Source: a virus (lineage: Duplodnaviria; Caudoviricetes). From it: 64,000 bases of DNA. Under the pieces are notes generated by a model. That model worked only from the letters and a program-made list of their open reading frames with translations. It searched no databases and was not told where the DNA came from. The first letter of the stretch is position 1, and every line of letters begins with the position of its first letter. Positions 27,479-56,649 of the stretch are shown in pieces. The stretch is from positions 3,041 through 67,040 of the IMG/VR virus record IMGVR_UViG_3300049444_000051; one strand, given 5' to 3'. The position numbers were made by a program, and so were the translations under genes.

Positions 27479-30400
27479 TTAAGAAGTGTACCAACTGGGT
27501 TTCTTGGCGATTCGGGATATGCTATGTTTCACAGCTTCTTTTTCAACATGATCCACAGCCTTGCCTTGCCCAGTGAATGGGCCGTGTGGTTTACCGCCAT
27601 CAATTGATAGGAACAGAGCGCGACCTGTGTTACCTCCGCTATCGCCACCGAAATCCACAGGTCCACCGCTTGCCAGTTGTGGTATGGAATTCCTGGTCAT
27701 TACTCCAAAATCCGTGACAAATCCACCCATGCTAAATTCCGGTAACTTTTTCAAATTATCCAGTACCTGTAAATTGGTGCTGAGACTGTTCGTGGTAGCG
27801 TTATTGAAAATAGTACTAATATTGCGCACTTGGCCACCGAAATTAAACTTGGGAAACTTAAGATTGTTAATGTCATGAAAGAACGGTAGCCCATAGTAAT
27901 CTACCGCAGCCGCTCGATGCACGAACTCCCCGCGCGACAGCCGTGCCAAGATGGAATCGCTTGTCTTGGTGCCTGGACCTCGTATGAACCCGGCCGGTCC
28001 GCCACTGGCAAGCTCTGTTGCAGATCCACCAGAACCGCTGGAAGCGGTACTGATAGCATCTGTAATGCGGCTGGCTGCGGAATCTACCGCTGTACTGATA
28101 TTCTGCACTGCTGCTGTGGTCGCTTGCACAGCGGTAACGACCGAGCCAATAGCGGTCACAATCGACTGAAACCCGGTACCTAAGCTGGATGCTTCGGTTG
28201 TGAGACTGGTATTTAGCGTATCCAGCTTTGCGCTATCTCCACTCAACGTGGTGGAGATCGTGTTGAGAACCGTGGTGATAGCTTGTATATCGGTCGAGGT
28301 AGCTGGGGTACCTGTCGCCCCCGGCGCTGCTGGTGTTGCAGGTGCCGCTGCCGGTGTGCCTGTCGTGCCAGCCTGCGGGGTCGCCCCCGCCATCCGCGCA
28401 ATGTTTTGCCCAATAGATGCAAGTGTCGTGGAAATTGCACTAAAAGCAGAACTGATGGCTGTCTTCAAATCCTGAATTGCGGATATCACCCCATCCTGAG
28501 AGATAGTGACAGGACCTTGAGCAGTAGTGACAGGAACCCCGCCACGGTCAGTTGCAACAGCGCCCCCGCCAGCAGATCCTTGTGGGGCAGCAGCCTGTTG
28601 TTGACTTACCTGCCTGCTCAATCCAGATATTGCATTTATTATCGATTGTAACCCAGAATTGATGCTGTCATTAATAACCTTCGTATTATCATTCGTCCTG
28701 CCTATAGTAGCCAGAATTGAATCTAGCTTGCTAATGACATTTCTTATAGCTCCGCTTATGGTTTCGGCCGACTTGTCAATGGCGTCTGTTACGGTTTTTA
28801 TACCTTGCGTGCCAAAGAATGAATCTGAGATCGATATAGGTCCGGTTGCGGTCGAGCTACCAGTAACCGGGCCACCCGTCGCAAAGCCGGGAAGCCTCAG
28901 GTTATTCAGGGCATGAAAAGTACTAACACCATATTTAGCGACAGCAGCAGCCTTGATAACAAATTCATGGCGAGACAGGCGCGCTAGAATACTGTCACTT
29001 GTAGTGGTTCCGGGACCGCGCACGAAGCCGCCGCCCGCTCCACCTGGGACAGGCGAACTGGCATTGGCTTGAACAGCTTGTATAACCCCATCGAGTTTTG
29101 ACTGTATGTTGGTTGACGCATTATCTATAGAAGCTACGATCCCAGAGACGATCTCATTCAATGCAGTGACTCTGGCGCTAAGATCTTGCAGCCACGTCAC
29201 CATGGTAGAAGTATTTTGCGCGATAGCACTTAATTGAGTATTAAGGGCCTCTTGTAAGCCGGTTAGCGCGGTACTCAACGCGCTTAATGGAACGCCGATA
29301 CTATTTTGAAAATTAGTTAATGTATCATTAATGGTAGTAAGAATGCTGCTTGCAGTAGTCAACGCTGTGGAAATAGCAGTATCCACAGGGGTAGGCGTAG
29401 CAGGGGTAGGCGTAGCAGGGGTAGGCGTAGCAGGGGTAGGCGTAGCAGGGGTAGCAGGGATAGGCGTAGCAGGGGTAGGAGCCAATTGCCTTATAGCTTC
29501 AACAGTCTGTGCAGTATCGTCCTGTATAGCTGTTATTAATGGCCCAAACATCCCCTCAGGTTGTACAAGCGGCGCTTCTTGAATAAGTTTGGCTTTCCCT
29601 GCCGCTGTATTAGCTTGAAATTCAGCTTCAAGTTTCTTTATCTCAGCAATTGCCGCTTCGTCAGCAGGTCCATGAGGGCCAAACATACCCTCAACAGCCC
29701 CTTTAATTATATCGGCAGACTCCTTACCCGATTCCTTAATTACATCGACAAGCTTATTTATACCGGCATCTGAACCAATAAGAGGCCCCTGCGGCGCTGC
29801 CGTTGTAGTAGGCTCCATTGGTGTAGTTTGTTGCTGTACTTGTTGTGGCGCTATCTTCTCCAAAATAGTTTTTACTGTATCCCTAATTTCTGCAACTAAC
29901 CCGAATAATCCGTCCAATGTTTCAGCAGATTGGACCAATATAGCAGCTATCGTTTCCAGCTTATCCAAAGAACTATTACGGGCGTCTTCGATATTAGCGC
30001 TAGCTGGAACTCCCGCTCGCGCGAGTTGGCCCTCTTTTCCAGGTACCGAGAAATTCTTGATAGTCTCAATCCAGGTATTGATGGTGTTAGACAGAGAAGA
30101 GAAAAATCCTTCCTCTTTACCAACCCCAGCCTCGAAACTGGTGGTCAACATTTCCAATTCACGAAATACGCTGTCTAACCTAGCAGCAGCTTCAGGTGCT
30201 AGTGGAGTAGCTATCGTGGCACCTGCACCAGTGGCATGTAACACATCGGCAATGCCTTGCGGCATCTGCTTGATGGTTTCTTCCAGTTCGCGTATGATCT
30301 GGTCGTCTAATATTTGCTTCTTTTCAGCAGCAGTTTGGCCAGTGCGATCCTCAATTCGCGACCGTCCCAAGGCTTCTTTACCAAGCGCATCGAAAGCGTC

Positions 30401-33400
30401 CTCTACACGCTTCGACGCAGAAACATCCGCATCCACAGCTTTTTCAGCTTCAGAAAAACTGAGAGTTAGTTTTTCCAATTCCGCAAACAGCGCGGATTCT
30501 CTGACAGCAGCCTCTGGAGAAAGCTCTGAAGGCTTGGATTCCGGTTTGAATTGGAATTGTGACTTATCCAACTCATCGATCTTGCTTCCAAGAGTTTTGA
30601 ATAGATCATTTAATACGTTATTAATAGCATCAGATACTTCTGGACTTGCTCCACCCTGTTGAGTATGTATTTCACGACCTTTGGCAATAATTGCCTCTAC
30701 AAGGTCTGTGAGCTTCTTGTTTTCATCCGCTGGAACTTGTGTAGTAAGTTCTTTCTGCCTATCAATTTCAGTAAACGCCTCCTTGAACTTCTCCTGAATC
30801 TGATCAACATTTTCTTTTAGCTTATCCAAGCTAGTAGCGGTACTATCGGCAGTAGTCCCCAGCTCGATAAATTTCTGAGGCAGTATTTCAAGCTTATCTC
30901 TATCAATCTGGACCTTGAATTCTTCCCCAGGGGGTCCCTTTGGAAATGGCCCCTGAATAATCTTCGTACGAGATCGCTCCACCGCAGCATCTATATCAGC
31001 GGCAGTCGGCCCCGACGCCCCTCCTCCACGAGAACCCGGCTGCGCGTTAATACCGCGATCCTCGGTATCCCTGGCAGCGGCCGTAGGAGCTATATGTGGC
31101 TTGAAATCTTTGGTTGTTTTATCAAGATCGCCAAAAAGATTCTTCCAGATGCCTTTAACTGAATCAGCAAAGGACTGGAAAGTACCAAGCATATTATCAG
31201 TCGAATCTTTAGTCTTGTTCTCTAAATCCTTAAGGGACGAATCTCCTCCGGTAAGAGCGTCCTTGAGTACCTTCCCAAGCTCGTTGAGATTCTCTAATGC
31301 AGCCCCCGGCTTGATTTCTTGCAGCTTTTTATTTATCTCATTCTTACGTCGCTCATACTCTTGCGGATCTAGCGTACCTTTTATCTCCTCTAGTTTTTTA
31401 AATGCATTTTCCAACCCAGCAAGTGTGTGAGCCTTATCAAATACATTGAGCAGATCTTTAAGTGCGGTAAATAGTAGTATGACAGGAAGTACCACAAGCC
31501 CCAATCGGGCGATTGCAGGAATAAGGGTTGTCGTTACCGCAATTGCAGCTCGACGCAACGCCGGTACCAAAGCCACTGTAAGTATAGCAGCCACGGCCAA
31601 TATAGCTTCAGCAACCACCTTGGCAGATACTTGAATGCCAAAAAAGTCTTCTGCGAATTTAGATATTGCACCACTAATTTTAGCCAGTTCATTTAGTACC
31701 GCATCGGCAGCGGCAGTTATTTCTTTGCTAAATAGTATGATTACTGCAATTGCCCCAACAATGGCGGCTACCCAAGCTAATGCGGCTCCGACCGTTAGGG
31801 TAAAAGCCCCTGCAATGAGATTGACACCGAGACTGAGAGCAGCAAGAGTACCTCCTACAACACCAATACTGAATGCAACAACCTGCAATAAATCTTTTAG
31901 TAGGGTGAGGGCACCACTTGCCTCAAGTACAATGGCTTTGAAGAGTCTTCCTGGACCCACAAACCCAGAGACAGCCGCAAGCAGCAAAGTAAGCTCTATC
32001 ACCGCATTTGGTATCGCCGTGACAATATCCTTGATGGCGAGAGTCGCCTCGAAAATCCATTTAAAATTCTGGTCGGATGCCTGCTTCTTCCCTGACAGTG
32101 CTTCTGTGAAGGCAGTCCATGCTCCAGATAAAAATGTCTTGATCGTAGTGCCAAGTTCCTGTAGCCCCTTAATGGTAGAGGTAATCCACGGATTTTTAAC
32201 AACCGCCTGATTACCGGCTAAAGCCGCCGTTATGTCAGTGAACAGTTCCTTTGCTTTATCCTTGATTGCATCGATATCGACACCAACACCCTTCAAGCTT
32301 TCCTTAAATGGCTTGAGTACATCACCCCCACTAAATACAGCGATAACAGCCAATGCCAGCGAATTAAACCCGCCGATCAACGCGGTGATGATCCCCCCGA
32401 TAATCAGCATGGGGGATGATATGTTAGTACCAAAAGCGTCATTTAATGACTTGGCTACGAATTTCGCCGCATCGCCTATGCTCTTCAAAACGTCTCGTAT
32501 GACAACAAAGATTTTCGTATTTATCTGTATATCTGGAGCACCTGCCAACGTCTTGAAGAAATCATCGATAATTGGAGCTACCGAAGTACCAATGGTAGCT
32601 GCCAACTCCTTCAAATTCAATTTCAGGGATTTGATACCCTCGGTAATAGCATTCAAAATTGGAGTGGCTGTCGGGGCGATCAGCAGCCCCAAGTCCAGCT
32701 TCCCGGTGCCGACACCGGCAAGCCCTGTGAACGCCTTTTTCAGATCGTCTATCGCCTTTGAGAAATCGCGAGCGGTCTGGATGTCAGCGGCGGTCTTGCG
32801 TACGAACTCGTCCAGAGGTACGAGCGCTTGACGTATGGAGCCGGGGGTTTCGTTCAACGACTTGACAAGCGCGGTACCAAAAGTCTCGCCAAGAACCTCA
32901 ATGGCCTTCTTGAGACGCTCGGCCGGATCTTTGATCTTTTGCAGGCTCTCGGCAAATTTCTCAAGATTGTTGGAGGTGAAATCCTTCTGTAGAGCCTTAA
33001 TGGCTTCCAGCTGCTCGCGCGCGTTCCGCAGGCCCTCACTGCCTTTGGACAGTAGTGCTATCTGCTCTGGGGTCAGATGAAGCCCGAGAGCGGAAGCAAT
33101 GGCGGCGTTCTTTGCCGCATCACCCGTTCCCTTGAACAGATCAGCCAGCTTATTTAATACGCGAGATACATCAATGCCGTTCTTGTTGATGCCATCTAGC
33201 GATCCATCAAAATCCTTTAATTGCCTTGCACTATCACCAATCGAGGCCACGAAGCCCCTTGCGATGTTCTGTGCCGATGTATCGACCTTATCGCCAATAA
33301 CCTGTACGCCAGCCGCCAAGGCGTTTGCGAGCTTTATGGCGCTTGCTATTGAAGTTTCTGTATCTTTTTGTCGCGCCGCCGCCCTTGCAGCATCTTTATC

Positions 33401-35326
33401 AGTAATTTCTTTTTCTGCATCTATCTGCTGCTGAATTTTTTCTGCCGCCGCTGCCTTAACTGCTTCTGCTATCTTAAGCTGGGCAGCCGCCTGTTGTTCA
33501 AGATCGTGCTTTTCGTCTTGACGAGCTTTCTTTTCTGCCGCAGCCACTTCAGCCTTGGCTTTGGCTATCCTGAAGGCATTATTAAAAGCGTCGTCTAGTA
33601 TCTTCTGTTCAGCTTGCTGGAGGCGGAACTCAGCCTCCTCCACCGCCAATACAGCCTTGCGCTCTGCCAATTCCTTATTAAATCGGTCATCGACCGGATG
33701 CCCTTGCAACGCAAGAAGCGCCTTCTGTGCCTCAAGCAACGATATTTGAGCATGCTCTACCGCGAAGGTGCTGGATTCTTCGTCTTTTTGCTGTTTGATA
33801 ATTGCCTGCGATAAACTCTCACGTGCCTTTTTAATATTCTGTGTATTAGTAACAGCTTTAGCAGCACTAGCTTCTTGTATCTTATCTAAATTGGTAAATG
33901 CCTGTTCTACCGCGTCTACGCCTTTTTTGACAGAATCTGTAAGTGCCTTTTCTACATCGGTTGCACCTGATTTGATAGAATTTTTAATCTTATCCCACTG
34001 AGCTTCAAACCCAGCCGAGAGCCCTGAAAATATGTTTTTAATATCTGTACCACCAATGCCCAAGCCCTCCAACGACTTGGTAATGTCGTCCAATGGTCCC
34101 TTCTTGACACCAAGGCTTAATTCTGCCTGCATATCCTTAAAAGCGGCGGTAGCCGCCAGGAGTTCTCTCTGCTTATCGGTTACAGTACCGATCTCGTCCT
34201 GCATAGCCTTGAAGGCTGAATTTGCATTTTCTAAATCAGGTACGAGTGCAGCATACGTGCTCTTTAATTTTTCTACTACGCTTACAGCGTTTCCCTGCTC
34301 CTCCTGCATGGCCTTGAAGGCTTCATTGGCGCGCTCCAAAGCCTGGATTATCCCCGGATCAAGCTCATCCAGCATATCCTTATAGGCAGCTTGCGTCCGC
34401 TCCAAATCCGGAACAGTCGCTCTTACCGCAGCACCAGTGTTGCTAAAAGCAGCGGCGATCCTGTCAAATACCTCACCAAGGACACTGCGGCTGGCAACGA
34501 GGCTCAATTCCTCATTCATGTCCTGCAAAGCAGTGGCAGCAGTAGCCAGATCCTTATCGAACGTAACTATCGGCACGTTAGTGCCATTGAGAGTATCAAG
34601 CATATCCTTCAGGGCGGCAGCAGAACTTTCCAGATCGTCGCGGAAATTGCTGGCAAGCGCTTTCGAGCCTATCTCTTGCACGAACTGCGCATAAGCTGCA
34701 TTTGCACGATCCAGCGAGGAGGCAAAGGCATCTGCCCCAACAGTGCTCAAATCGAAAGCGCCGATAGAGCTTTTCAGAGTCTCTCTGGTACCGTCTACCG
34801 CCTTGTTGAACTCCTCTACGTCCTTGATGCGACTGCTTATCGCACCGCCAAGATCAGACGCAGCAAACGCTTCCACTGCGCTCTTGACATCCTTAGCGAA
34901 GCTGACGACAGCAGTAGCAATCGCCACCTTGCTGAGAGTGGTATTTACGTTGAATACCTCCTTAGCCAACCGCTGAAAATCAGAAATAGAGCCAGTTACG
35001 AATCCGTTGATGTTTCCAAATACAGTCTCAGCCGTTCCACCAAGCGTGATCAACGCCTGCTGTGGCTGCTCAGTACCTAAATTAAGCTTAGTATTATTTG
35101 CGGTATCCTCAATCCGCTTGAAAGCAGCGGCACCAGCAGTACCAACGTCGTCAAGATTCTTTTGTATTTTATCAGTCGGAATATCGATATTTCCAAGTCT
35201 CTTAACTGCATCGCCTAGAGAGCCAAACGCCTTCTGTCCAGCTTCCGCCACATCCTGAAGCTGGCGAATAAGCTCTTCGCCACCATCAAGCGCGATTTGT
35301 TGTAGGATTTTGTCGTTCTGGGCCAT
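27479..35326 (-). CDS. Tape measure protein (2615 aa)
   Basis: Ala/Leu/Lys-rich helical composition; follows G/GT chaperones; C-terminal GPGT.TSDSILARLS..EFV and xxGGxV motifs typical of TMP ends. Confidence 0.92.
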   Translation of the reverse strand: MAQNDKILQQIALDGGEELIRQLQDVAEAGQKAFGSLGDAVKRLGNIDIPTDKIQKNLDDVGTAGAAAFKRIEDTANNTKLNLGTEQPQQALITLGGTAETVFGNINGFVTGSISDFQRLAKEVFNVNTTLSKVAIATAVVSFAKDVKSAVEAFAASDLGGAISSRIKDVEEFNKAVDGTRETLKSSIGAFDLSTVGADAFASSLDRANAAYAQFVQEIGSKALASNFRDDLESSAAALKDMLDTLNGTNVPIVTFDKDLATAATALQDMNEELSLVASRSVLGEVFDRIAAAFSNTGAAVRATVPDLERTQAAYKDMLDELDPGIIQALERANEAFKAMQEEQGNAVSVVEKLKSTYAALVPDLENANSAFKAMQDEIGTVTDKQRELLAATAAFKDMQAELSLGVKKGPLDDITKSLEGLGIGGTDIKNIFSGLSAGFEAQWDKIKNSIKSGATDVEKALTDSVKKGVDAVEQAFTNLDKIQEASAAKAVTNTQNIKKARESLSQAIIKQQKDEESSTFAVEHAQISLLEAQKALLALQGHPVDDRFNKELAERKAVLAVEEAEFRLQQAEQKILDDAFNNAFRIAKAKAEVAAAEKKARQDEKHDLEQQAAAQLKIAEAVKAAAAEKIQQQIDAEKEITDKDAARAAARQKDTETSIASAIKLANALAAGVQVIGDKVDTSAQNIARGFVASIGDSARQLKDFDGSLDGINKNGIDVSRVLNKLADLFKGTGDAAKNAAIASALGLHLTPEQIALLSKGSEGLRNAREQLEAIKALQKDFTSNNLEKFAESLQKIKDPAERLKKAIEVLGETFGTALVKSLNETPGSIRQALVPLDEFVRKTAADIQTARDFSKAIDDLKKAFTGLAGVGTGKLDLGLLIAPTATPILNAITEGIKSLKLNLKELAATIGTSVAPIIDDFFKTLAGAPDIQINTKIFVVIRDVLKSIGDAAKFVAKSLNDAFGTNISSPMLIIGGIITALIGGFNSLALAVIAVFSGGDVLKPFKESLKGVGVDIDAIKDKAKELFTDITAALAGNQAVVKNPWITSTIKGLQELGTTIKTFLSGAWTAFTEALSGKKQASDQNFKWIFEATLAIKDIVTAIPNAVIELTLLLAAVSGFVGPGRLFKAIVLEASGALTLLKDLLQVVAFSIGVVGGTLAALSLGVNLIAGAFTLTVGAALAWVAAIVGAIAVIILFSKEITAAADAVLNELAKISGAISKFAEDFFGIQVSAKVVAEAILAVAAILTVALVPALRRAAIAVTTTLIPAIARLGLVVLPVILLFTALKDLLNVFDKAHTLAGLENAFKKLEEIKGTLDPQEYERRKNEINKKLQEIKPGAALENLNELGKVLKDALTGGDSSLKDLENKTKDSTDNMLGTFQSFADSVKGIWKNLFGDLDKTTKDFKPHIAPTAAARDTEDRGINAQPGSRGGGASGPTAADIDAAVERSRTKIIQGPFPKGPPGEEFKVQIDRDKLEILPQKFIELGTTADSTATSLDKLKENVDQIQEKFKEAFTEIDRQKELTTQVPADENKKLTDLVEAIIAKGREIHTQQGGASPEVSDAINNVLNDLFKTLGSKIDELDKSQFQFKPESKPSELSPEAAVRESALFAELEKLTLSFSEAEKAVDADVSASKRVEDAFDALGKEALGRSRIEDRTGQTAAEKKQILDDQIIRELEETIKQMPQGIADVLHATGAGATIATPLAPEAAARLDSVFRELEMLTTSFEAGVGKEEGFFSSLSNTINTWIETIKNFSVPGKEGQLARAGVPASANIEDARNSSLDKLETIAAILVQSAETLDGLFGLVAEIRDTVKTILEKIAPQQVQQQTTPMEPTTTAAPQGPLIGSDAGINKLVDVIKESGKESADIIKGAVEGMFGPHGPADEAAIAEIKKLEAEFQANTAAGKAKLIQEAPLVQPEGMFGPLITAIQDDTAQTVEAIRQLAPTPATPIPATPATPTPATPTPATPTPATPTPVDTAISTALTTASSILTTINDTLTNFQNSIGVPLSALSTALTGLQEALNTQLSAIAQNTSTMVTWLQDLSARVTALNEIVSGIVASIDNASTNIQSKLDGVIQAVQANASSPVPGGAGGGFVRGPGTTTSDSILARLSRHEFVIKAAAVAKYGVSTFHALNNLRLPGFATGGPVTGSSTATGPISISDSFFGTQGIKTVTDAIDKSAETISGAIRNVISKLDSILATIGRTNDNTKVINDSINSGLQSIINAISGLSRQVSQQQAAAPQGSAGGGAVATDRGGVPVTTAQGPVTISQDGVISAIQDLKTAISSAFSAISTTLASIGQNIARMAGATPQAGTTGTPAAAPATPAAPGATGTPATSTDIQAITTVLNTISTTLSGDSAKLDTLNTSLTTEASSLGTGFQSIVTAIGSVVTAVQATTAAVQNISTAVDSAASRITDAISTASSGSGGSATELASGGPAGFIRGPGTKTSDSILARLSRGEFVHRAAAVDYYGLPFFHDINNLKFPKFNFGGQVRNISTIFNNATTNSLSTNLQVLDNLKKLPEFSMGGFVTDFGVMTRNSIPQLASGGPVDFGGDSGGNTGRALFLSIDGGKPHGPFTGQGKAVDHVEKEAVKHSISRIAKKPSWYTS
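29386..29479 (-). repeat. 15-bp tandem repeat encoding PATPT
   Basis: caggggtaggcgtag in 4 perfect copies (29386-29445) plus degenerate copies. Confidence 0.95.
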
Positions 35327-38916: not shown

Positions 38917-39882
38917 TTACTCGTAGGCCGGGTGCAGGATCTTGTCCACGTACCGCATTGCTCCAGGTCGCCGGATTTCGAGCCCGCCAGTACGAAAAAT
39001 ACCGGGAACCTCGAATTGCATTGGGCCGTCCTGGTATGCTTGCAGAAAGTTGTGCGACATCGGAAGATGGAACTTCAACACCTGGGGATCTTTTTTATAA
39101 GCGACCATCCGCCCGGTACCGCCTTCCCCCGCCGTCTCCAGTCCCCGCACCGCCATGATGGTCAAGGGCTGCTTAGTATATGCCGTATAGGCGTTGTACT
39201 CTTCCAACCAGGACATGATCGTCCTGTCGATCCCAGTGACGCGACGAGTTGCGAGGGTCGTATAAATCGACACGGGCAGCAACAACATATCTGCCATTTC
39301 AACCTGTTTCGTGTCTTCGTATACCCCGCTGAGTGCAGCGTTCACATCGCGCATGATCTGATCCGAAGTCTTATCGGAAAAAGCCGGTGAACCTCCATCT
39401 CCATCAAGTGGAACCTCCGACACCGTCACATTAGGATCGTTGATCAGGCCGGTCCAGTTCTTGCCCGTGTCGCCAGTCAAAGCAACAGCGTCCAGAAACT
39501 CCTCAGCCGCGCGCGAAGCAGCAAGCGCACGATCCGCTGTAAGCGGCTGGCCGGTCATAGCAGCTTGCCCGAGTTCTTCGAGCGTATAACCGTAGCCAAT
39601 TGCCGCCATTTCGAGGCCGTGCTCGAACTTCTGCCGGACCACATCGGCGCGCGGGATGTCCTTGGCCATGTGGTGGAACCATTCGGCCTTACCGACTTTA
39701 TCGGTCGAGAAGAACGTGACCGACTTGGCCCATGGATTGGCCGACGTATCTATCGGTACGAGTTTCGTATATTGAATCTCGGGGTATCTTGTTGCGTAGA
39801 CCTCGGCTTCGATTGACGAAACTTGAGAGATCAGGAAGCCCAAAGCCTGCTGCTGGGCATCCCGAGTGTACATCTGATACAT
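38917..39882 (-). CDS. Major capsid protein, DUF2184 family
   Basis: RDAQ..GFLISQ..IEAEVY..YPEI; GYGYTLEEL; GGLEIRRP; GAGGAG RBS before ATG 39882. Confidence 0.92.
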   Translation of the reverse strand: MYQMYTRDAQQQALGFLISQVSSIEAEVYATRYPEIQYTKLVPIDTSANPWAKSVTFFSTDKVGKAEWFHHMAKDIPRADVVRQKFEHGLEMAAIGYGYTLEELGQAAMTGQPLTADRALAASRAAEEFLDAVALTGDTGKNWTGLINDPNVTVSEVPLDGDGGSPAFSDKTSDQIMRDVNAALSGVYEDTKQVEMADMLLLPVSIYTTLATRRVTGIDRTIMSWLEEYNAYTAYTKQPLTIMAVRGLETAGEGGTGRMVAYKKDPQVLKFHLPMSHNFLQAYQDGPMQFEVPGIFRTGGLEIRRPGAMRYVDKILHPAYE

Positions 39883-39972
39883 ATCAGACTCCTCATTATG
39901 GGGTTGTGCGGGAAGCCTCACAGGGGGTGACGCAAGTACCCCTTGAGAACTAGGTGAAAGCACACATAAAGA

Positions 39973-40483: not shown

Positions 40484-41053
40484 TTACGCCGTCTTCGCGG
40501 GCGTCTTCCAGGCGTTTCGCATATACTCGTCCCGGTCTGCCAGCGCTTTTGTACGCGCGTCCATGACTGGAGCCGCGAACCTGATGCTGTCAGCCAAGCT
40601 ACGGGCGCTGCCAACAGGTTTCACAGCAGCATCCTTAGTTATGACCACAAACGCAGCCGACACATGCTCGTCGGTGAACGTCTTGGCAGTTCCGCCCATG
40701 TAATCATCGACAACCTGCCTGCGAATCTCGGCATCGGTCTTGCCGTCAGTGACAAGCCGGTCGCCAAGAATGGCTTGCGCCTTGTTCACAGTCTCATAGC
40801 GCTCGCGTACCGCCTCGTCCTTCTGCTGCGGGGTCAACGTACTGTCCGCAAGCTTCTTGGTCAGAACGGCGATCTCGGCGTCCTTGGCCACGAGCGCCTC
40901 GTCCTTCTTGGCAATAGTCGCCGCCGCCGTGGCCGCCGCAGTAGCTGCGTCGGTCGTGAGCTTGGCGAGCTTGTCAAGTTCCTTCTTAATCACGGTCGCA
41001 CCGATCTCGGTGGTTTCGACCGGGATGCTGTCGATGGTAAGTGTCACACTCAT
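40484..41053 (-). CDS. Nested in-frame scaffold protein (internal start)
   Basis: GAGGAAGGAGACTCAACCATG immediately before the coiled-coil region. Confidence 0.65.
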   Translation of the reverse strand: MSVTLTIDSIPVETTEIGATVIKKELDKLAKLTTDAATAAATAAATIAKKDEALVAKDAEIAVLTKKLADSTLTPQQKDEAVRERYETVNKAQAILGDRLVTDGKTDAEIRRQVVDDYMGGTAKTFTDEHVSAAFVVITKDAAVKPVGSARSLADSIRFAAPVMDARTKALADRDEYMRNAWKTPAKTA

Positions 41054-43255
41054 GGTTGAGTCTCCTTCCTCGTCTATGAGAACCATGTCGATCAAGTCAT
41101 CGCTGACGAGGGAGTTGCTGTCATGACTGATCGTGTAGTGATACGTCTTTATTTTCTTAACGCCTCCGAAAAAGCCAGCCCCCGGTACAAGCTGATATTC
41201 CGGAACTGGTTTAATTTTCGCTTTATCCCATTTCTTCTTTTGTTCCTCAATTAACTTCTGCGCCTGTTGCAAATCCTTAAGATGTCGAGCAAGCTGCTCC
41301 TGCTGAAACGATACACGGGCCTTAGCTTCCTCAACGTTACGGATAGTGTGATCAGCTGGAGGTTCAATCCTTGAAACAGCAGCACTTGCTAAGGCAGTAT
41401 GCCCAACAGAAGTAGAAGCAAACTCACCTGTAATCGGATCGTGATTCTCGTTATAATCCAGAACTTCGACCAAGGACTCGTCTGGAGGCATTTCATCGAA
41501 ACGAACCTGGAAATGCGTAGACCTTACTTCCTTATATCCCTTGAAAGGATGCCTAAGACGTGCCAATCCGCGAGTAGGTACATGTTGAGTAGGGCCTGGA
41601 ACTGCCCGCGCGCGGTTCCAGATATTACGCTGCTGTTCGATATGCGCAATTGCCGCCGCTTTCGAGGTGAATCCCGGCGAGTTGGGCTTGAGAATAGCGC
41701 CCTTAGCGTTTTTACCTACGCCTGGAATATGGATAAAAGGTGCTTCCGGCAGTTCCCCCGTTTTGCTCTTGCGGCTAAATAGTTTGCGCAGGATTCCTGG
41801 TGCCTTGGGGTTAGTCCAGACGGTGCGTGCCGGATCATGATAACGCTCCGCTGTTGGAAAGGTCTGTCCAGAAGTGGCCGTGCCCTCTCCATAATGCAAA
41901 TGCGCACCATGGGGAATAGCATTCGGATCTTCAGGCTTACCAGCAGTTCCCCTCGAATGACCGGCACCATAAGGGCTTGGCTCACCGGGCGCTCCAGTCA
42001 ATCCAATTTTAGCATGTTGGCGTCCTGGCTGAATTTCAATGGGCTGTCCAGACCAGGGATCGAGTTTCAGGGCTCCACCTATCCCTGATTCCTGCTTTCC
42101 CATCCGAATTTCAGGCTGCTCGCCAAATATACCAAGCGTCTTTGCGTGCATTATTGCAAGGTTAATAGCTTGACGACGCCCTTCTGCTGCCGTATTAGCA
42201 ATAATAGGACCAACGCGCCAATGAAGAGCTTTGTTACCTACGTAACGTCCCGGCTTCTCTCCTGGGCCTGCACCTCCAAGAGCGTAACCAGGAGGAAGCC
42301 CGCGTTTTTTACGTTGTGTCTTCGGGCCGTCCGGTCCAGACGTAAATTCTCCGGTGTTAGGATCATGGTTGGGATTTCCGCCGTGACCCGGTATTAAATC
42401 TCCTATAAAAAACTCATCGTTCGCATACGCAACAATAGCCGCCATCTCGTCTTCGGTAATCGGAATCGCTTCTAGGTACGGCCCCCCAGTGCGTTCCACG
42501 AAACTGTCGTAGGACTCGTCATCCTGAGTCAGATCATAACCACATTCCGGGCATGTCTTGGCATCATGTGGAATATCAGCGCCACATTGCGAACACTGGT
42601 CCATTTTGGCAGCATCGTTGATGGCAGCTATTAAAGAATCGCCAAATCCAGCTACGGTGCCGGGTTTTACGAACTCTTCAGACGACGAGAGTCGCGGCAT
42701 AACTGAATCAGCGTGCTCATCACCTATCCGAAGCAAGCTACCGCCCCGCGCCGAATTGACAACGGCGAGATGATTGGCCCGGATATTGGTCTGCACAGCA
42801 TCGTACGATTCGCCATCATTAGTCACACCGTCACCAAATTTCAAGTCACAAAGGTAACCTAAGCTCAATTCCACCCGTCCATCCTCGAACGCTTTGACAG
42901 CATTTGCGTCCATCAAGGTCATAGGAACCCGCACGTAACCGCCATCTCTAATGACTTCATCGCCCACGCTGCCGACCGCATGTTGCTTCCAATTAACCGA
43001 CGACACCATCTCGTTAGGATGTCCAACCGTTACCGTTTTGTGGGCATACGACTTCAAGGAATCGGCGCTGAACACCTCGCTAGGCGGCCGGTAGACCCGC
43101 ACGCGATCCAGCTCGGGCTTACCAACCTCGCTCCCCCGGTAAATCTGAATGCCCGTGCGCGCCACGCGCGGCTGGGCAGTCAGAAAGCCATCCTTGGTCT
43201 TGCGCACTTTTGCCTGCGCGTCGAAAACGAGATCGTCATGCAGTTCGAGCGACAT
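40484..43255 (-). CDS. DUF2213 head maturation protease/scaffold with large central insertion
   Basis: ARTGIQIY, VTVGHP, ELSLGY, NHLAVV..ARGG; C-terminal coiled-coil scaffold. Confidence 0.88.
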   Translation of the reverse strand: MSLELHDDLVFDAQAKVRKTKDGFLTAQPRVARTGIQIYRGSEVGKPELDRVRVYRPPSEVFSADSLKSYAHKTVTVGHPNEMVSSVNWKQHAVGSVGDEVIRDGGYVRVPMTLMDANAVKAFEDGRVELSLGYLCDLKFGDGVTNDGESYDAVQTNIRANHLAVVNSARGGSLLRIGDEHADSVMPRLSSSEEFVKPGTVAGFGDSLIAAINDAAKMDQCSQCGADIPHDAKTCPECGYDLTQDDESYDSFVERTGGPYLEAIPITEDEMAAIVAYANDEFFIGDLIPGHGGNPNHDPNTGEFTSGPDGPKTQRKKRGLPPGYALGGAGPGEKPGRYVGNKALHWRVGPIIANTAAEGRRQAINLAIMHAKTLGIFGEQPEIRMGKQESGIGGALKLDPWSGQPIEIQPGRQHAKIGLTGAPGEPSPYGAGHSRGTAGKPEDPNAIPHGAHLHYGEGTATSGQTFPTAERYHDPARTVWTNPKAPGILRKLFSRKSKTGELPEAPFIHIPGVGKNAKGAILKPNSPGFTSKAAAIAHIEQQRNIWNRARAVPGPTQHVPTRGLARLRHPFKGYKEVRSTHFQVRFDEMPPDESLVEVLDYNENHDPITGEFASTSVGHTALASAAVSRIEPPADHTIRNVEEAKARVSFQQEQLARHLKDLQQAQKLIEEQKKKWDKAKIKPVPEYQLVPGAGFFGGVKKIKTYHYTISHDSNSLVSDDLIDMVLIDEEGDSTMSVTLTIDSIPVETTEIGATVIKKELDKLAKLTTDAATAAATAAATIAKKDEALVAKDAEIAVLTKKLADSTLTPQQKDEAVRERYETVNKAQAILGDRLVTDGKTDAEIRRQVVDDYMGGTAKTFTDEHVSAAFVVITKDAAVKPVGSARSLADSIRFAAPVMDARTKALADRDEYMRNAWKTPAKTA

Positions 43256-47756: not shown

Positions 47757-48515
47757 TCACTGCACATTTATCCTTTGCTGCTGCTTATAGCATAAATAGT
47801 ACTCCCGCCCTGGCAGCAGCTTGATATGCGTTGCCTTTTCATAACCTTTCAACTCAGTCGCGGCCTTGTAAACACCATCGATATGCACGTCGTCGAACAT
47901 GATATAATCTTCGTGAAGCTGTCTCTGCGAAATCAACTGTGCTTCCAGCCGGACTTGCTCATATTTATGTTTTCCGTCGATAAAAGCAAATGTGATATGA
48001 TCGAAATTCTCTGATAGCCAATGTACCCCGGTCGATTGGATGAACTCTATTTGCTCCGACTCAGGCCACGGCTTGAGGATCTCGGCAAGCGTTTTATAAC
48101 CATCCACCTCGGCAATCGTGTTCCTGCGCACGCGCGCTAAAGGATCGATAACATCAAGAGAAACAACTCGCCCGGTTACATTAGGACGGCTATCGAGCAA
48201 CGCCCACAACAGGCACATGGCAGAAAATCCCTTGGCCGTACCGATATCTAATAAAAGCACTTCACCTTGTGAACGCGCTAATATATTACGTACGGTGCTG
48301 TAAATCACTCTACCATGCTGCCAATTTGGAGGATTGACCTTAAGCGGACAGGCCAGGACACGCGCTGCATGTTCGAGGCGCTTACGATCCAGCGCGTACC
48401 CCAAAGCACGTTCAAAAGCAATAATAGATCCATAAATCTGCGTGCATTCCTTCTGGAATACAGCGTTGTATTCGTCGTACGAAGGCTGTTTATGAGCAGG
48501 AACTTTCACGTTCAT
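47757..48515 (-). CDS. Class I SAM-dependent methyltransferase (Methyltransf_24-like)
   Basis: LDIGTAKGFSA, VSLD, FAFIDGKHKYE, IMFDD; start overlaps the MuF stop. Confidence 0.82.
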   Translation of the reverse strand: MNVKVPAHKQPSYDEYNAVFQKECTQIYGSIIAFERALGYALDRKRLEHAARVLACPLKVNPPNWQHGRVIYSTVRNILARSQGEVLLLDIGTAKGFSAMCLLWALLDSRPNVTGRVVSLDVIDPLARVRRNTIAEVDGYKTLAEILKPWPESEQIEFIQSTGVHWLSENFDHITFAFIDGKHKYEQVRLEAQLISQRQLHEDYIMFDDVHIDGVYKAATELKGYEKATHIKLLPGREYYLCYKQQQRINVQ

Positions 48516-49453
48516 TCCACTGGGATTAATAGGCAACGACACCTGTTGTGGGCGGGGATAAGCCCGCGAGCACGGTCGATGTCGTAAGGCCCGTCCTCCG
48601 CGATATTCTCGCAAATCATGCACACTCTGTCGTCTTCAGCGGTTTGCACGTTGACCTCGCCAAGACGGTTCAGCTTCGCCTCACGCCGCTGGATCAGGTT
48701 ACGTTGCCGTGGAGAAGGGCGCTTCCCGCGCGGAATCACTTCAGCCTTGCGAGCGTCTCCTATATGAAAATGCCGCCGCTCACCGCTGGCATCGATACCG
48801 ACTTGCTTGACGCCTGCCGCCGAGAACGTATCCAACGTGGCCTCGGCATAGGCGCGCTTCACGCTCCAATCGACCAGCATGTTCGAGCGCGCTTCGCCAA
48901 CCTTCACGAGGCGCTCCTTGACGGCAGTATAGGCTTGCATAGACGGTTCACAGCGCATCGTAGCATCGGTAAAGGCCCGTACGGTCTGTTGCACCGTGGC
49001 GGCAGCGATCCCTTGCGTTTCCGAAATTGCCGCATCAGCCAGAATAGGCAGGCATTGATTTATCTGCGTTGGCGCGTGCTGTAGTGTCATGCATGCGCTA
49101 CCTACACCTCGATTATAAGCTGAACGCACATACTTAACCGGCCACTCTCCGGTAACAGCTTGCTTCACGGCGGTATCAATAAACGAACTAAATGCCGCCA
49201 CGCTGTTGATGGAATTCTTATCGACCACGGCCTCGCGCACGAGGCTATCGACCTTACGCCAACGGCGATTGAACTCTTCCCGAAAGGCATTGCGCACATC
49301 GATTGTATTCGTAGGATCGACCGGCAGGGCATCTCTTACCCGGCACTTATGCCGAAAACCACCGGAAGCGTGGTAAGCAATAACCTGCTTCTTAGTCCAG
49401 ATTCGACCGGACGGACTTTTGTATTTATCAGGCCCTAGTTTCGTGAATGGCAT
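48512..49453 (-). CDS. MuF-like minor head protein
   Basis: DDRVC..C..PAHNRCRC C-terminal signature. Confidence 0.85.
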   Translation of the reverse strand: MPFTKLGPDKYKSPSGRIWTKKQVIAYHASGGFRHKCRVRDALPVDPTNTIDVRNAFREEFNRRWRKVDSLVREAVVDKNSINSVAAFSSFIDTAVKQAVTGEWPVKYVRSAYNRGVGSACMTLQHAPTQINQCLPILADAAISETQGIAAATVQQTVRAFTDATMRCEPSMQAYTAVKERLVKVGEARSNMLVDWSVKRAYAEATLDTFSAAGVKQVGIDASGERRHFHIGDARKAEVIPRGKRPSPRQRNLIQRREAKLNRLGEVNVQTAEDDRVCMICENIAEDGPYDIDRARGLIPAHNRCRCLLIPVE

Positions 49454-53723: not shown

Positions 53724-53930
53724 TCATGTTTTCACCTTGCGCCCAGCTAAAATAATAAACACCAAAAACAAAGGCCAAAGAGTCACAACACCAGTAAGCG
53801 TGATAAACGCAGCTACGATAGTAGCTACTTTGGATTTCCTAAAAGAATCGCGCACCGGTTCCCAAAGCTGTTTGGGCGATGCCAGCAGCAAAATCAGCGT
53901 AATAAGTTCGCCAATTATAAAATATATCAT
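53724..53930 (-). CDS. Two-TM small protein, holin candidate
   Basis: Two hydrophobic helices, basic C-terminus, just upstream of the endolysin. Confidence 0.5.
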   Translation of the reverse strand: MIYFIIGELITLILLLASPKQLWEPVRDSFRKSKVATIVAAFITLTGVVTLWPLFLVFIILAGRKVKT

Positions 53931-54574
53931 GAAAGTATTTTGCCTTTAGCATCGAAGCGCATGGCTTCAAGCATCTTGCGCGCCTCTTCGCCCAGCTTCT
54001 CACCGATGCTCTTCTCGATAAAATCAAATCCAGCAGGTGTCAATGCATATTCCGTAGCTGAATCTTCACTTAGAGTAGCAGCCAACTTGTGCGCACGAAC
54101 TATCGCCGCAAACTTTTCATGCATAAGATTTTCAAAATCTGCTTGCGAAAGGGTCTTAACCGCTCCCAGAAGCCCAAGCGCTCCTGCACCCGAGATCAAC
54201 CCATATCCAACCAATGCTGCCCCGATACCGACTAGCGCCACTTTTCCAGCGAACTTCAACGTGTCAGGATCAGTCAGCTTCTTCTTGAAATACGCGCCCC
54301 AAGTCTCCTTTGAAGCACTGGCAGATGGCTCTGCCGACCCAAGAGTGCCTTCCTGCTTATTATGAAAAGCCAAACCGCCGCCACCAAACTTTATACCAGA
54401 TGGACTAATAGAGAAAGAAGACACACCACCTCCGGAAGTCCATTGCCCTTGCGGATCGCGCGGCTCATTAGGGTCGTAATCTTTCATTGGAACCATCGCG
54501 CGCAATACCTCTGGCAACGCTGCCCCAAACATTTGTTGCACCTCGCCTGGAGCCAGGATTATTGCATCTCTCAT
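53927..54574 (-). CDS. Putative capsid-internal/ejection protein with tag motif and hydrophobic hairpin
   Basis: KDYDPNEPRDPQGQWTSGGG; GKVALVGIGAALVGYGLISGAGALGLLG; coupled to the portal stop. Confidence 0.6.
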   Translation of the reverse strand: MRDAIILAPGEVQQMFGAALPEVLRAMVPMKDYDPNEPRDPQGQWTSGGGVSSFSISPSGIKFGGGGLAFHNKQEGTLGSAEPSASASKETWGAYFKKKLTDPDTLKFAGKVALVGIGAALVGYGLISGAGALGLLGAVKTLSQADFENLMHEKFAAIVRAHKLAATLSEDSATEYALTPAGFDFIEKSIGEKLGEEARKMLEAMRFDAKGKILS

Positions 54575-56649
54575 TGCACTAGCTCCACGCGCATGATTGG
54601 ACGATTATGTTCATCCCGATGTACTGAATTAACCCGATAATGCCCGTGCCGATGGAATAGTAATTCTTTTTCCTCGGCATGGCCAGTAAAACCACCAAAC
54701 TGATACAGATCTAGCGCCTTTGCACCTTTCTTGGCGCTGATCTCTAGTATAACTTCATCTCGACTTTGCGGGGTACGCCCTAATAAGTGCCCTAATGGCC
54801 CCGAATGCTTCCCGGTAGGCTGGGCAAATGTACGCGACACATGGTCCCGATCTAAAGACGTTGATTGATAATTTTTAATTGGAAGCTCCTTACCCACAAG
54901 AGATTCTGCATTGTCATGCACAACTGGATTTTGCAATCCTCGATACACTACCGTGTCTTTTGCAAGCGTAGATTTATCCAAAGCAGAATCAAGATGATTA
55001 ACAGCTTCTACCCATTTTGAACTCCAACGTCCCTCCCCACGCAACCAAGCATTCATATCATCTGAACCCGTTGCATAACTCAAAAGCGCAGTATACTCAT
55101 TCTGATTAAACATCCCACTTTGTTTGACGTGAGCAGATGGATCGGACGAATTTACCCCACCCCCTGAAGAAGCCCATTTCCCATCTGGACCACGCGGCTG
55201 GTCAGGAGAATAGTCTTTTGTTGGTACCTTCGCTCCGACCTTGATCTTAGTAATAGCCAACTCATGCGCGTGCTGCTGCTCGGTCTGCGCTGCTTGCTGC
55301 TCTTGCTGGGCGACCTCCTGCGGGCTTGGCCCTACAGGTTCGAGCTTACCAGCGTCGTAGTCTTCCAACGTTTGTTGTAGACCTGGATACGTGCCATCCT
55401 CGATAAGCTGGTTCTCGCGAGCCTCGCGTAGCACCTCGGGTGGAATCAGCCCCATATCATGGTCAATCTTGAAAGTGGCAGCTTTCTTCGAGGCCAGATC
55501 CGCCTTCTCAGTCTCGGTCATCTGCCAGAGGCTATTCCACTCGTAGAAAATGCCGGGGTCGCGCGTGCCCAAAGCAGAGCGAATAAGTACCTCATCAAGG
55601 GTGTGCAGCGCAGGAGACAACTCGGTCTTTTGTTCCGAATTAATATGGTCGTAGTAATTCCTGGTGTCGCTCTCACCAGTCGCAGACAACCCGGCAGGTG
55701 ACTGCCCCAGCATGCGCGTAGCGGGAATATCAGCCGCACCGCCAGCCATCAACAAGTAAAGTTTCAAAATATCCGGGAGGCTGCCAAAATTAAGTGTCTT
55801 GGTCTCGAACTCCTCGTCGGCATCGAGCAGTAGCATATTATTGACCGACTTCATCATATTTCCATATGTGAAGCGTGAAGTCATACGATCTGTATATTCT
55901 TGCGATGTAAGGTTCTCACTAAGATTCGGTACCTTGATAATATCAATCTTGGCCTCGTGCGTTAACGACGCAATGGCCGCAGCAACCGCGCTAGCACTGT
56001 TGGTCGCATCGTACACAGATTGCAAGATACTATCGCCCCACATCCGGCTTTCTGCAATCGTAAGATCCGGGACCTCACGTCCTATCAAGCGTACGACGCG
56101 CGAGGGATGGATACGACGCAGAAGCTCGCTGTTCTTTGCATTCACCGAAGTTACACTAAGCCCGTAATATTCCGGATGCCCGTAGAACGGATCCATGACA
56201 TCATCGATGATCTGCCCGGAAGTCGTTATCTCGTAGCGACTAAAAACATGCACGAATTTCAGAGAACCTTGTTTAACCCGATCTAAAACAAGCTCTTGCT
56301 CAGGACTACCAGCCCCATCGACACCAAGAACAATAACAGCGCCGCCATAAAGACGGGCGCGAATGAGCGCTCGTTTGAGCTTCTGCTGTACGGCATGCTG
56401 TTTCTCTGCTTCTTCAAGCAGCTCGATTTGAGGCTGATCGGCCTGCCAATTCCGCCATGCGCGTGTTGAATCCTTCGCTGGGATATCAATAACCTTGGCG
56501 GCAATCCAATCGCTTCGGTAAGCCGCATCCAATTGCATCTTATCGAGCTGTGTATAAACATAACGGTTATGAAACGCCTTATCCTTGGGCGTGCCAAGAT
56601 TCGTAACTAGATTCTTCAGTCCATCAAGCATGCGAAAAGGGGCGTTCAT
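54571..56649 (-). CDS. Portal protein (DUF1073/HI1409 family) with C-terminal VIP2-like ADP-ribosyltransferase domain
   Basis: Portal: LDAAYRSDWIAAKVIDIPAKDSTR, ARLYGG, AADIPATRMLGQSPAGLSATGESD..NYYD. ART: YRG, YQSTS, EEKELL. Confidence 0.9.
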   Translation of the reverse strand: MNAPFRMLDGLKNLVTNLGTPKDKAFHNRYVYTQLDKMQLDAAYRSDWIAAKVIDIPAKDSTRAWRNWQADQPQIELLEEAEKQHAVQQKLKRALIRARLYGGAVIVLGVDGAGSPEQELVLDRVKQGSLKFVHVFSRYEITTSGQIIDDVMDPFYGHPEYYGLSVTSVNAKNSELLRRIHPSRVVRLIGREVPDLTIAESRMWGDSILQSVYDATNSASAVAAAIASLTHEAKIDIIKVPNLSENLTSQEYTDRMTSRFTYGNMMKSVNNMLLLDADEEFETKTLNFGSLPDILKLYLLMAGGAADIPATRMLGQSPAGLSATGESDTRNYYDHINSEQKTELSPALHTLDEVLIRSALGTRDPGIFYEWNSLWQMTETEKADLASKKAATFKIDHDMGLIPPEVLREARENQLIEDGTYPGLQQTLEDYDAGKLEPVGPSPQEVAQQEQQAAQTEQQHAHELAITKIKVGAKVPTKDYSPDQPRGPDGKWASSGGGVNSSDPSAHVKQSGMFNQNEYTALLSYATGSDDMNAWLRGEGRWSSKWVEAVNHLDSALDKSTLAKDTVVYRGLQNPVVHDNAESLVGKELPIKNYQSTSLDRDHVSRTFAQPTGKHSGPLGHLLGRTPQSRDEVILEISAKKGAKALDLYQFGGFTGHAEEKELLFHRHGHYRVNSVHRDEHNRPIMRVELVQ

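Follow-up and report, generated by a model that had tools for sequence, protein, structure and literature searches.

A phage portal protein fused to an apparently intact ADP-ribosyltransferase, and the portal C-terminus as a recurrent site of effector exchange

Why does a structural protein of a phage head carry an enzyme at its C-terminus, and where and when would such an enzyme act? This question is raised by a gene on the minus strand (54571..56649) of a 64,000-nucleotide (nt) stretch of viral DNA, in the following called the window, which comprises bases 3041-67040 of the 67,040-bp IMG/VR virus record IMGVR_UViG_3300049444_000051 (Duplodnaviria; Caudoviricetes), rated complete by CheckV. 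The gene is a single open reading frame (ORF) without internal stop, and it encodes a protein of 692 amino acids (P0001) with matches to the portal family PF06381 and to the ADP-ribosyltransferase (ART) family PF03496. An original prediction, made from the letters of the DNA, described the protein as a complete portal joined by a linker and a tag to an ART with all motifs of the R-S-ExE type, and proposed that the enzyme is delivered at infection. We find that the portal-ART fusion is real but that it is a recurrent arrangement, belonging to a class that was described before.

Architecture of the portal-ADP-ribosyltransferase protein

The N-terminal part of the protein, residues 1-423 (55381..56649, minus strand), is a portal core of the Phage_portal_3 (DUF1073) type. 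Pfam PF06381 is matched at residues 39-394 with an E-value of 2.8e-107 (359 bits), the PHROGs collection likewise identifies this part as a portal (phrog_146, E 3.2e-126), and the closest solved portal is gp3 of the cyanophage Pam3 (PDB 8hds; E 2.4e-95 over residues 7-429), with a further match to gp19 of E217 (E 3.6e-18). Conservation across 32 related portals ends with EDGTYPG at residues 417-423. The linker that follows, residues 424-503 (55141..55380, minus strand), consists of a Gln/Ala-rich predicted helix (443-467) and a low-confidence stretch (467-502); residues 424-512 contain 12 Gln, 9 Ala, 9 Gly, 8 Pro and 8 Ser. It holds the motif KDYSPDQPRGPDGKW..GGG, and the junction motif in its full extent, the tag, reads KDYSPDQPRGPDGKWASSGGG and covers residues 478-498 (55156..55218, minus strand). 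In the AlphaFold 2 (AF2) model of the full-length protein, the portal core is folded and the ART is confident, and the predicted local distance difference test (pLDDT) score is 32-45 over about residues 461-500.

The ART domain comprises residues 514-692 (54574..55110, minus strand). Pfam PF03496 (ADPrib_exo_Tox) matches residues 514-680 with an E-value of 1.2e-14 and 54.5 bits at a cut-off of 23.4, and the search of the genome gave 55.8 bits for the same family. All motifs quoted in the original prediction are present at their places, i.e., VVYRG at residues 567-571 (54937..54951), which contains the catalytic arginine R570, YQSTS at 594-598 (54856..54870) with the STS motif S596-T597-S598, and EEKE at 659-662 (54664..54675) with the ExE motif E660-K-E662, as well as ALLSY (521-525), MNAWLR (532-537) and LDSALDK (553-559). 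In an alignment of 39 sequences, comprising the window ART and 38 homologues of 26-36% identity, R570, S596, T597 and E662 are invariant. Among solved structures, matches of the C-terminal 199 residues are Listeria Lmo0066 (E 9.7e-05), VIP2 (1qs2) and C3larvin, and YRG, STS and EKE of the window ART align with YRW, STS and EKE of VIP2. The check by structure prediction that had been suggested with the original prediction also gave an ART fold: the AF2 model of the last 215 residues has a mean pLDDT of 85.8, and the best Foldseek matches are C3bot1 (E 1.6e-12, template modelling score 0.61-0.65), Lmo0066, VIP2, Plx2A, Certhrax, Vis, iota and CDT. The poorly modelled parts are the tag and linker and an insert of ~25 residues after STS (residues 608-632, 54754..54828, minus strand; pLDDT 54-60), which is mostly gapped in most aligned homologues. 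With the C3, VIP2 and iota toxins the window ART shares the fold and the R, STS and ExE motifs; it differs from them in that the identity is as low as 17-22%, in the extra loop after STS, in the lack of a binding or translocation component and in its position on a phage structural protein.

Taken together, the protein has all the sequence and fold features that define an R-S-E ART and a PF06381 portal, and the gene is a portal fused via a flexible linker to an ART that, as judged from its motifs, is apparently catalytically intact. The ExE motif suggests arginine as the residue that is modified, a relation that is established for enzymes of the C3, iota and Alt type. Bxa, a characterised ART fused to the minor head protein MuF, modifies arginines (PMC11699363). 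The identical 692-residue protein is recorded on five contigs from two sources (JGI/IMG and Logan), and for this reason an assembly chimera is unlikely. Production of a free ART from an internal start was also considered; the sole in-frame ATG ahead of the domain (Met511) is not preceded by a convincing ribosome-binding site in the DNA, and this idea was dropped.

The portal C-terminus as an exchange site for effectors

The original prediction had anticipated that related portals carry variable C-terminal domains, and this is what was found. A search with the portal part yielded 1404 relatives, and passengers were counted by precomputed Pfam annotation in the best 120 of these 1404 (48-58% identity; P0153-P0271). 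Acb1 (PF23474), a 2H phosphodiesterase that acts as nuclease against the cyclic-oligonucleotide-based anti-phage signalling system CBASS, is present on 78 of the 120 portals. The ART family PF03496 is found on 15 portals, six of which also contain PF23474, and the further passengers are ParB_N (2), Zeta toxin (2), topoisomerase IB (1) and S78 prohead protease (1); 32 portals show no extra Pfam domain. The architectures were confirmed on nine examples. The S78 protease occurs in a triple fusion (P0184), in which it sits between portal and Acb1. Extensions of 120 residues or more beyond the portal core are found in 118 of the 130 portals collected. The C-terminus of the portal in this clade is therefore a place where early effectors are exchanged; most of these are Acb1, and about one portal in eight has an ART. 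The window protein fits the class of portal-effector fusions, in which a portal is recurrently joined to conflict-type enzymes that differ from one member to the next.

The exchange is also seen from the side of the enzyme. A full scan with HMMER, in which the ART part was compared with 1.84 billion representatives, returned 291 relatives, and the best 150 of these, together with one protein found earlier, include nine further full or partial proteins with an N-terminal portal of the same type. On the ART tree the portal-fused ARTs are scattered, with 20 label changes in 25 rows of which at least three are forced by well-supported branches, and the window ART has no close portal-fused sister.

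The nearest portals by likeness belong to prophages of Alphaproteobacteria (Bosea, Inquilinus, Aureimonas, Rhizobium and Caulobacter; 40-52% identity). In 80 prophage loci of named bacteria with related portals (L006-L085), a portal-Acb1 fusion is present in at least 40, among them loci of Brevundimonas, Caulobacter, Rhizobium, Mesorhizobium, Pseudomonas, Xanthomonas, Stenotrophomonas and others, and an ART lies within 6 kb of the portal in none of the 80. The fusion of the window was not detected in 50,697 GenBank phage records by tblastn with the last 352 residues, as no record spans both parts, and among isolated phages the ART matches a single protein, the head morphogenesis protein (MuF type) of Raoultella phage RP180. 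A separate search counted four isolate records in which 80% or more of the whole protein was covered; the tblastn result does not explain them as ART fusions.

The Pam3 portal gp3, the closest solved relative, likewise has an enzyme-like passenger at its C-terminus. Residues 464-611 of 8hds chain A match a stand-alone protein of the Acb1 type (E 3.1e-30), and no mention of this Acb1-like region was found in the text of the structure paper (PMC9942802). Pam3 differs from the window phage in the nature of the passenger, which is Acb1-like rather than an ART, and in being a myophage, whereas the tail genes of the window phage are of the siphovirus type.

Fusions of this kind have precedents. Fusions of PBECR, 2H and InPase domains to portals were described by Iyer et al. 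2017 (PMC5512222), and portal fusions to ART and Nudix domains are named as well (PMC9503650, PMC5512222). These proteins resemble that of the window in combining an N-terminal portal domain with a C-terminal conflict enzyme, and they are predicted to be packaged and injected. Both papers are works of comparative genomics without experiment, and their main text, as far as accessible, does not specifically treat the PF06381 clade, the prevalence of its passengers or the junction tag. The original prediction had stated that phage ARTs are known as T4 Alt/Mod or as fusions to MuF proteins. Both forms exist, but the statement is incomplete since portal-ART fusions were already described by Iyer et al., and the novelty of the fusion was overstated.

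Stand-alone homologues of the ART point to a possible origin of the fusion. In five of five informative contexts they are located in virion modules, and in three of these the ART directly follows the portal gene, the portals being of other families, namely DUF4055 in two contexts and Portal_Mu in one. Of the three ARTs, two immediately precede MuF; in the third context (L089, 5677-7681 and 8188-9939), the Portal_Mu and ART genes overlap by 41 nt in different frames, and a MuF-ART fusion is encoded four genes downstream, so that one head module contains two ARTs. In the remaining two contexts, one ART follows MuF and the other lies between the head-completion and tail-terminator genes. Because stand-alone ARTs sit in virion modules and in these three contexts directly behind the portal gene, the simplest reading is that the window gene arose by fusion of a portal gene with an adjacent ART gene; the unit that was joined would have been a cassette of tag and ART, which in other phages is a separate gene next to the portal. 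Passengers are also found side by side or in series. In one phage (P0255) a portal-ART gene is immediately followed by a separate Acb1 gene, which was not found in the window phage, and many ARTs in tandem occur in giant proteins, P0004 having nine matched stretches and P0028 about 10 domains.

The junction motif and the gene neighbourhood

The tag is the least explained part of the protein. It follows the pattern [FY][DS]P[DN]QPR(D)xxG[KR]W..GGG over ~20 residues, and the strict form of this pattern occurs in 97 copies in 272 collected proteins compared to one copy in shuffled sequences. Almost half of the copies (46 of 97) lie at most 80 residues upstream of an ART domain, with a median gap of 21, and many stand-alone ARTs have the motif near their N-terminus. 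Besides ART, it stands ahead of GNAT, Zeta kinase, DUF7178, PARP-like and oxidoreductase domains, and in giant multi-domain proteins (P0100, P0097, P0081 and P0099) it is repeated up to seven times between unrelated enzyme domains. Since it is present in no more than 16 of the 118 extended portals, and never ahead of Acb1, the motif travels with certain cargo cassettes and not with the portal. No description of it was found in the literature searched, including the accessible text on linkers and cleavage sites of the paper on polyvalent proteins, which is not proof that none exists.

A second copy in the window, KDYDPNEPRDPQGQW..GGG at 54440..54463, lies near the N-terminus of the product of the next gene (53927..54574, minus strand), which overlaps the stop of the portal gene by 4 nt and encodes a protein of 215 amino acids. 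In this protein the tag is followed by a Gly-rich hydrophobic segment and a helical tail; no match was found in Pfam, in PHROG or in the protein atlas, and no immunity or hydrolase fold is recognised. It is probably a second tagged cargo of the head. It is tempting to regard the motif as a portable signal for cargo in phage heads, marking where passengers dock to their carriers or are cut from them, and we put this forward as a tentative idea. If it were correct, and if the prohead protease cuts at the motif, the phage would release 12 ARTs together with a tagged membrane protein for injection, and the motif could predict the injected proteome of many uncultivated phages.

The portal-ART gene is part of a late, minus-strand operon and, as expected for a portal, is located in a head module with protease, capsid and connector genes. 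An ORF further downstream (48512..49453, minus strand) was called a short MuF in the original prediction. A role in the head is compatible with weak PHROG matches to minor-head and head-morphogenesis families (best E 4.4e-07), of which the three with a passing stretch cover the last ~45 residues, but Pfam gives no MuF match; the homologue of this ORF in the P0255 phage has 808 amino acids. The head maturation protease of the DUF2213 family (40484..43255, minus strand; 923 amino acids) is recognised by PF09979 (E 6.8e-48) and phrog_530 (E 6.5e-83). Its protease domain covers residues 19-180 and is followed by a zinc ribbon and ~700 residues without family match, and PHROG family 30637 matches the portal and the protease of the window alike. 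The major head protein (38917..39963), the head closure and major tail protein genes, two peptidoglycan-binding or M15 peptidase genes and a cluster of glycosyltransferase and methyltransferase genes are also encoded downstream on the portal strand. To judge from its tail genes, the phage is siphovirus-like. The tape measure protein (27479..35326, minus strand) has 2615 amino acids, a length that implies a very long tail or additional embedded domains. The large terminase subunit was not found in the whole record, despite its rating as complete, by a search with PF03237, by PHROG scans of the ORFs upstream of the portal or by tblastn with the proteins of two relatives. Neither a tyrosine integrase nor an ADP-ribosylhydrolase (ARH) nor a Macro domain was found in the phage genome, a Bsi-like immunity gene was likewise not found, and there is no sign of a temperate lifestyle.

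Possible roles of the portal-borne enzyme

In portals generally, the C-terminus faces the capsid interior. On this topology, and because Pam3 gp3 is a dodecamer in the virion (PMC9942802), up to 12 ART domains per virion would be located inside the head, above the portal crown, and a separate packaging signal would be needless. The linker would be cut during head maturation at or near the tag, probably by the DUF2213 prohead protease, and the freed ART of ~20 kDa would leave with the DNA and, in the manner of T4 Alt, modify host proteins at the very start of infection. To this reading of the portal-tethered ART as a head-packaged early effector, which is cut loose, ejected with the DNA and ADP-ribosylates host proteins early, we assign roughly even chances. 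Release would be required for delivery, because 40-90 residues of tether are too short for a tail whose tape measure has 2615 residues, and candidate processing enzymes are at hand, namely the DUF2213 protease of the phage itself and the S78 protease within the portal-Acb1 fusion of a relative. After such a release the ART may be delivered at infection, and RNA polymerase, ribosomes or defence proteins may be its targets, as the original prediction had proposed. Injection of head-packaged ARTs and of portal or MuF fusions is also predicted in previous studies (PMC9503650, PMC5512222).

Several points weigh against an injected effector. If it were left uncut, the ART would be held by a tether too short to reach the host, and cleavage and ejection are steps that we infer. 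In the text of the Pam3 paper no statement was found on whether the Acb1-like part was resolved or removed, which leaves room for a permanent attachment of passengers. Most ART-bearing extended portals do not contain the tag, and because it is found in so few of the extended portals it cannot be a universal release site. Moreover, the ART tree, on which the portal-fused ARTs appear scattered, is poorly resolved.

T4 Alt is a free internal protein; a capsid-targeting sequence directs it into the head, and the prohead protease trims it. Alt resembles what is proposed here for the window ART in being an ART of the R-S-ExE type that is packaged in the head and injected along with the DNA; its substrates are arginines of host RNA polymerase and of further proteins (summarised in PMC9503650 and PMC5512222). 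In contrast to the window ART, which is part of the portal chain, Alt is separate from the portal polypeptide, a comparison that is made by description.

Alternatively, the ART might act in the producing cell, where, placed on new portals and active before or during assembly of the procapsid, it would modify host proteins or defence proteins that come into contact with the portal or with the packaging machinery, such as immune proteins that sense portal or terminase, and its presence in the capsid would be incidental. This role was raised for portal- and terminase-linked ARTs by Iyer et al. 2022 (PMC9503650). It needs no cleavage, the enzyme is made late together with the structural genes, and the failure to find ARH, Macro domain and integrase in the genome is in keeping with a lytic phage, for which there is no need to keep the host intact. 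However, the other common passengers, i.e., Acb1, ParB and Zeta kinase, are expected to act at entry, the ART cassette also occurs on MuF and, as a separate gene with the tag, in head modules, which is the pattern of packaged cargo, and activity late in infection leaves the recurrent fusion to a structural protein unexplained. We therefore consider it unlikely that the ART acts in the producing cell.

It appears improbable that the ART remains attached to the portal permanently and serves in structure or packaging, for instance by arranging the DNA that is packaged first or last or by bulking the crown, with catalysis irrelevant or residual. Portals such as Pam3 gp3 do have extra barrel and crown elements, the processing of the linker would be an inferred step, and the low-confidence insert of 25 residues after STS might disturb the pocket for nicotinamide adenine dinucleotide (NAD). 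Against this, the invariance of the arginine, of STS and of the catalytic glutamate in 39 divergent sequences argues for selection on catalysis, and the passengers of sister portals are unrelated enzymes rather than one structural fold.

Variable C-terminal domains on a conserved virion N-terminal domain are also a property of polymorphic toxins, and the MuF toxins, such as Bxa of a Bacteroides phage and the EFV toxin of E. faecalis (Jamet et al. 2017, PMC5576092; PMC11699363), share with the window protein an ART of the Alt/VIP2 class at the C-terminus of a head protein encoded in the packaging module. In the sense of these toxins, the enzyme would be delivered to competing bacteria without immunity so as to kill or inhibit them, and the product of the small, translationally coupled downstream gene would be the immunity protein, as immunity genes are adjacent to the MuF-ART Bxa (PMC11699363). 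The window protein departs from the MuF toxins in the feature that defines them, as its N-terminal domain is a portal without MuF match in Pfam or PHROG. The 215-residue protein has a cargo tag and a hydrophobic segment but no recognised immunity or hydrolase fold, ARH and Macro domain were not found in the genome, MuF toxins are linked to temperate phages yet no integrase was found, and no ART lies within 6 kb of the portal in any of the 80 prophage loci mentioned above. A role as polymorphic toxin thus has little to recommend it.

Finally, modification of nucleic acid, either phage DNA passing the portal or host RNA, instead of protein arginine is hardly tenable: although the domain adjoins the DNA channel, some R-S-E ARTs such as Scabin and pierisin target DNA or RNA and one distant homologue has a Scabin-like Pfam match, the window protein matches PF03496 exclusively and has ExE in place of the QxE of the DNA-targeting group, in structure it best matches the protein-targeting C3, VIP2 and iota enzymes, and the supply of NAD within a procapsid is doubtful.

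What is new here are the prevalence of passengers in this portal clade, the Acb1-like domain on the Pam3 portal, the stand-alone ARTs adjacent to portal genes and the breadth of the junction motif. An experimental test of any portal-borne effector was not found in the literature searched, and the window protein or the portal-Acb1 protein of the culturable phage Pam3 would allow the release and injection of such passengers to be examined directly. Enzymes that enter with the DNA can act on the host ahead of all phage gene expression, and the portal as their carrier would provide a fixed dose of 12 copies without separate packaging signal. The conserved junction motif, in turn, could serve as a marker for injected proteins.

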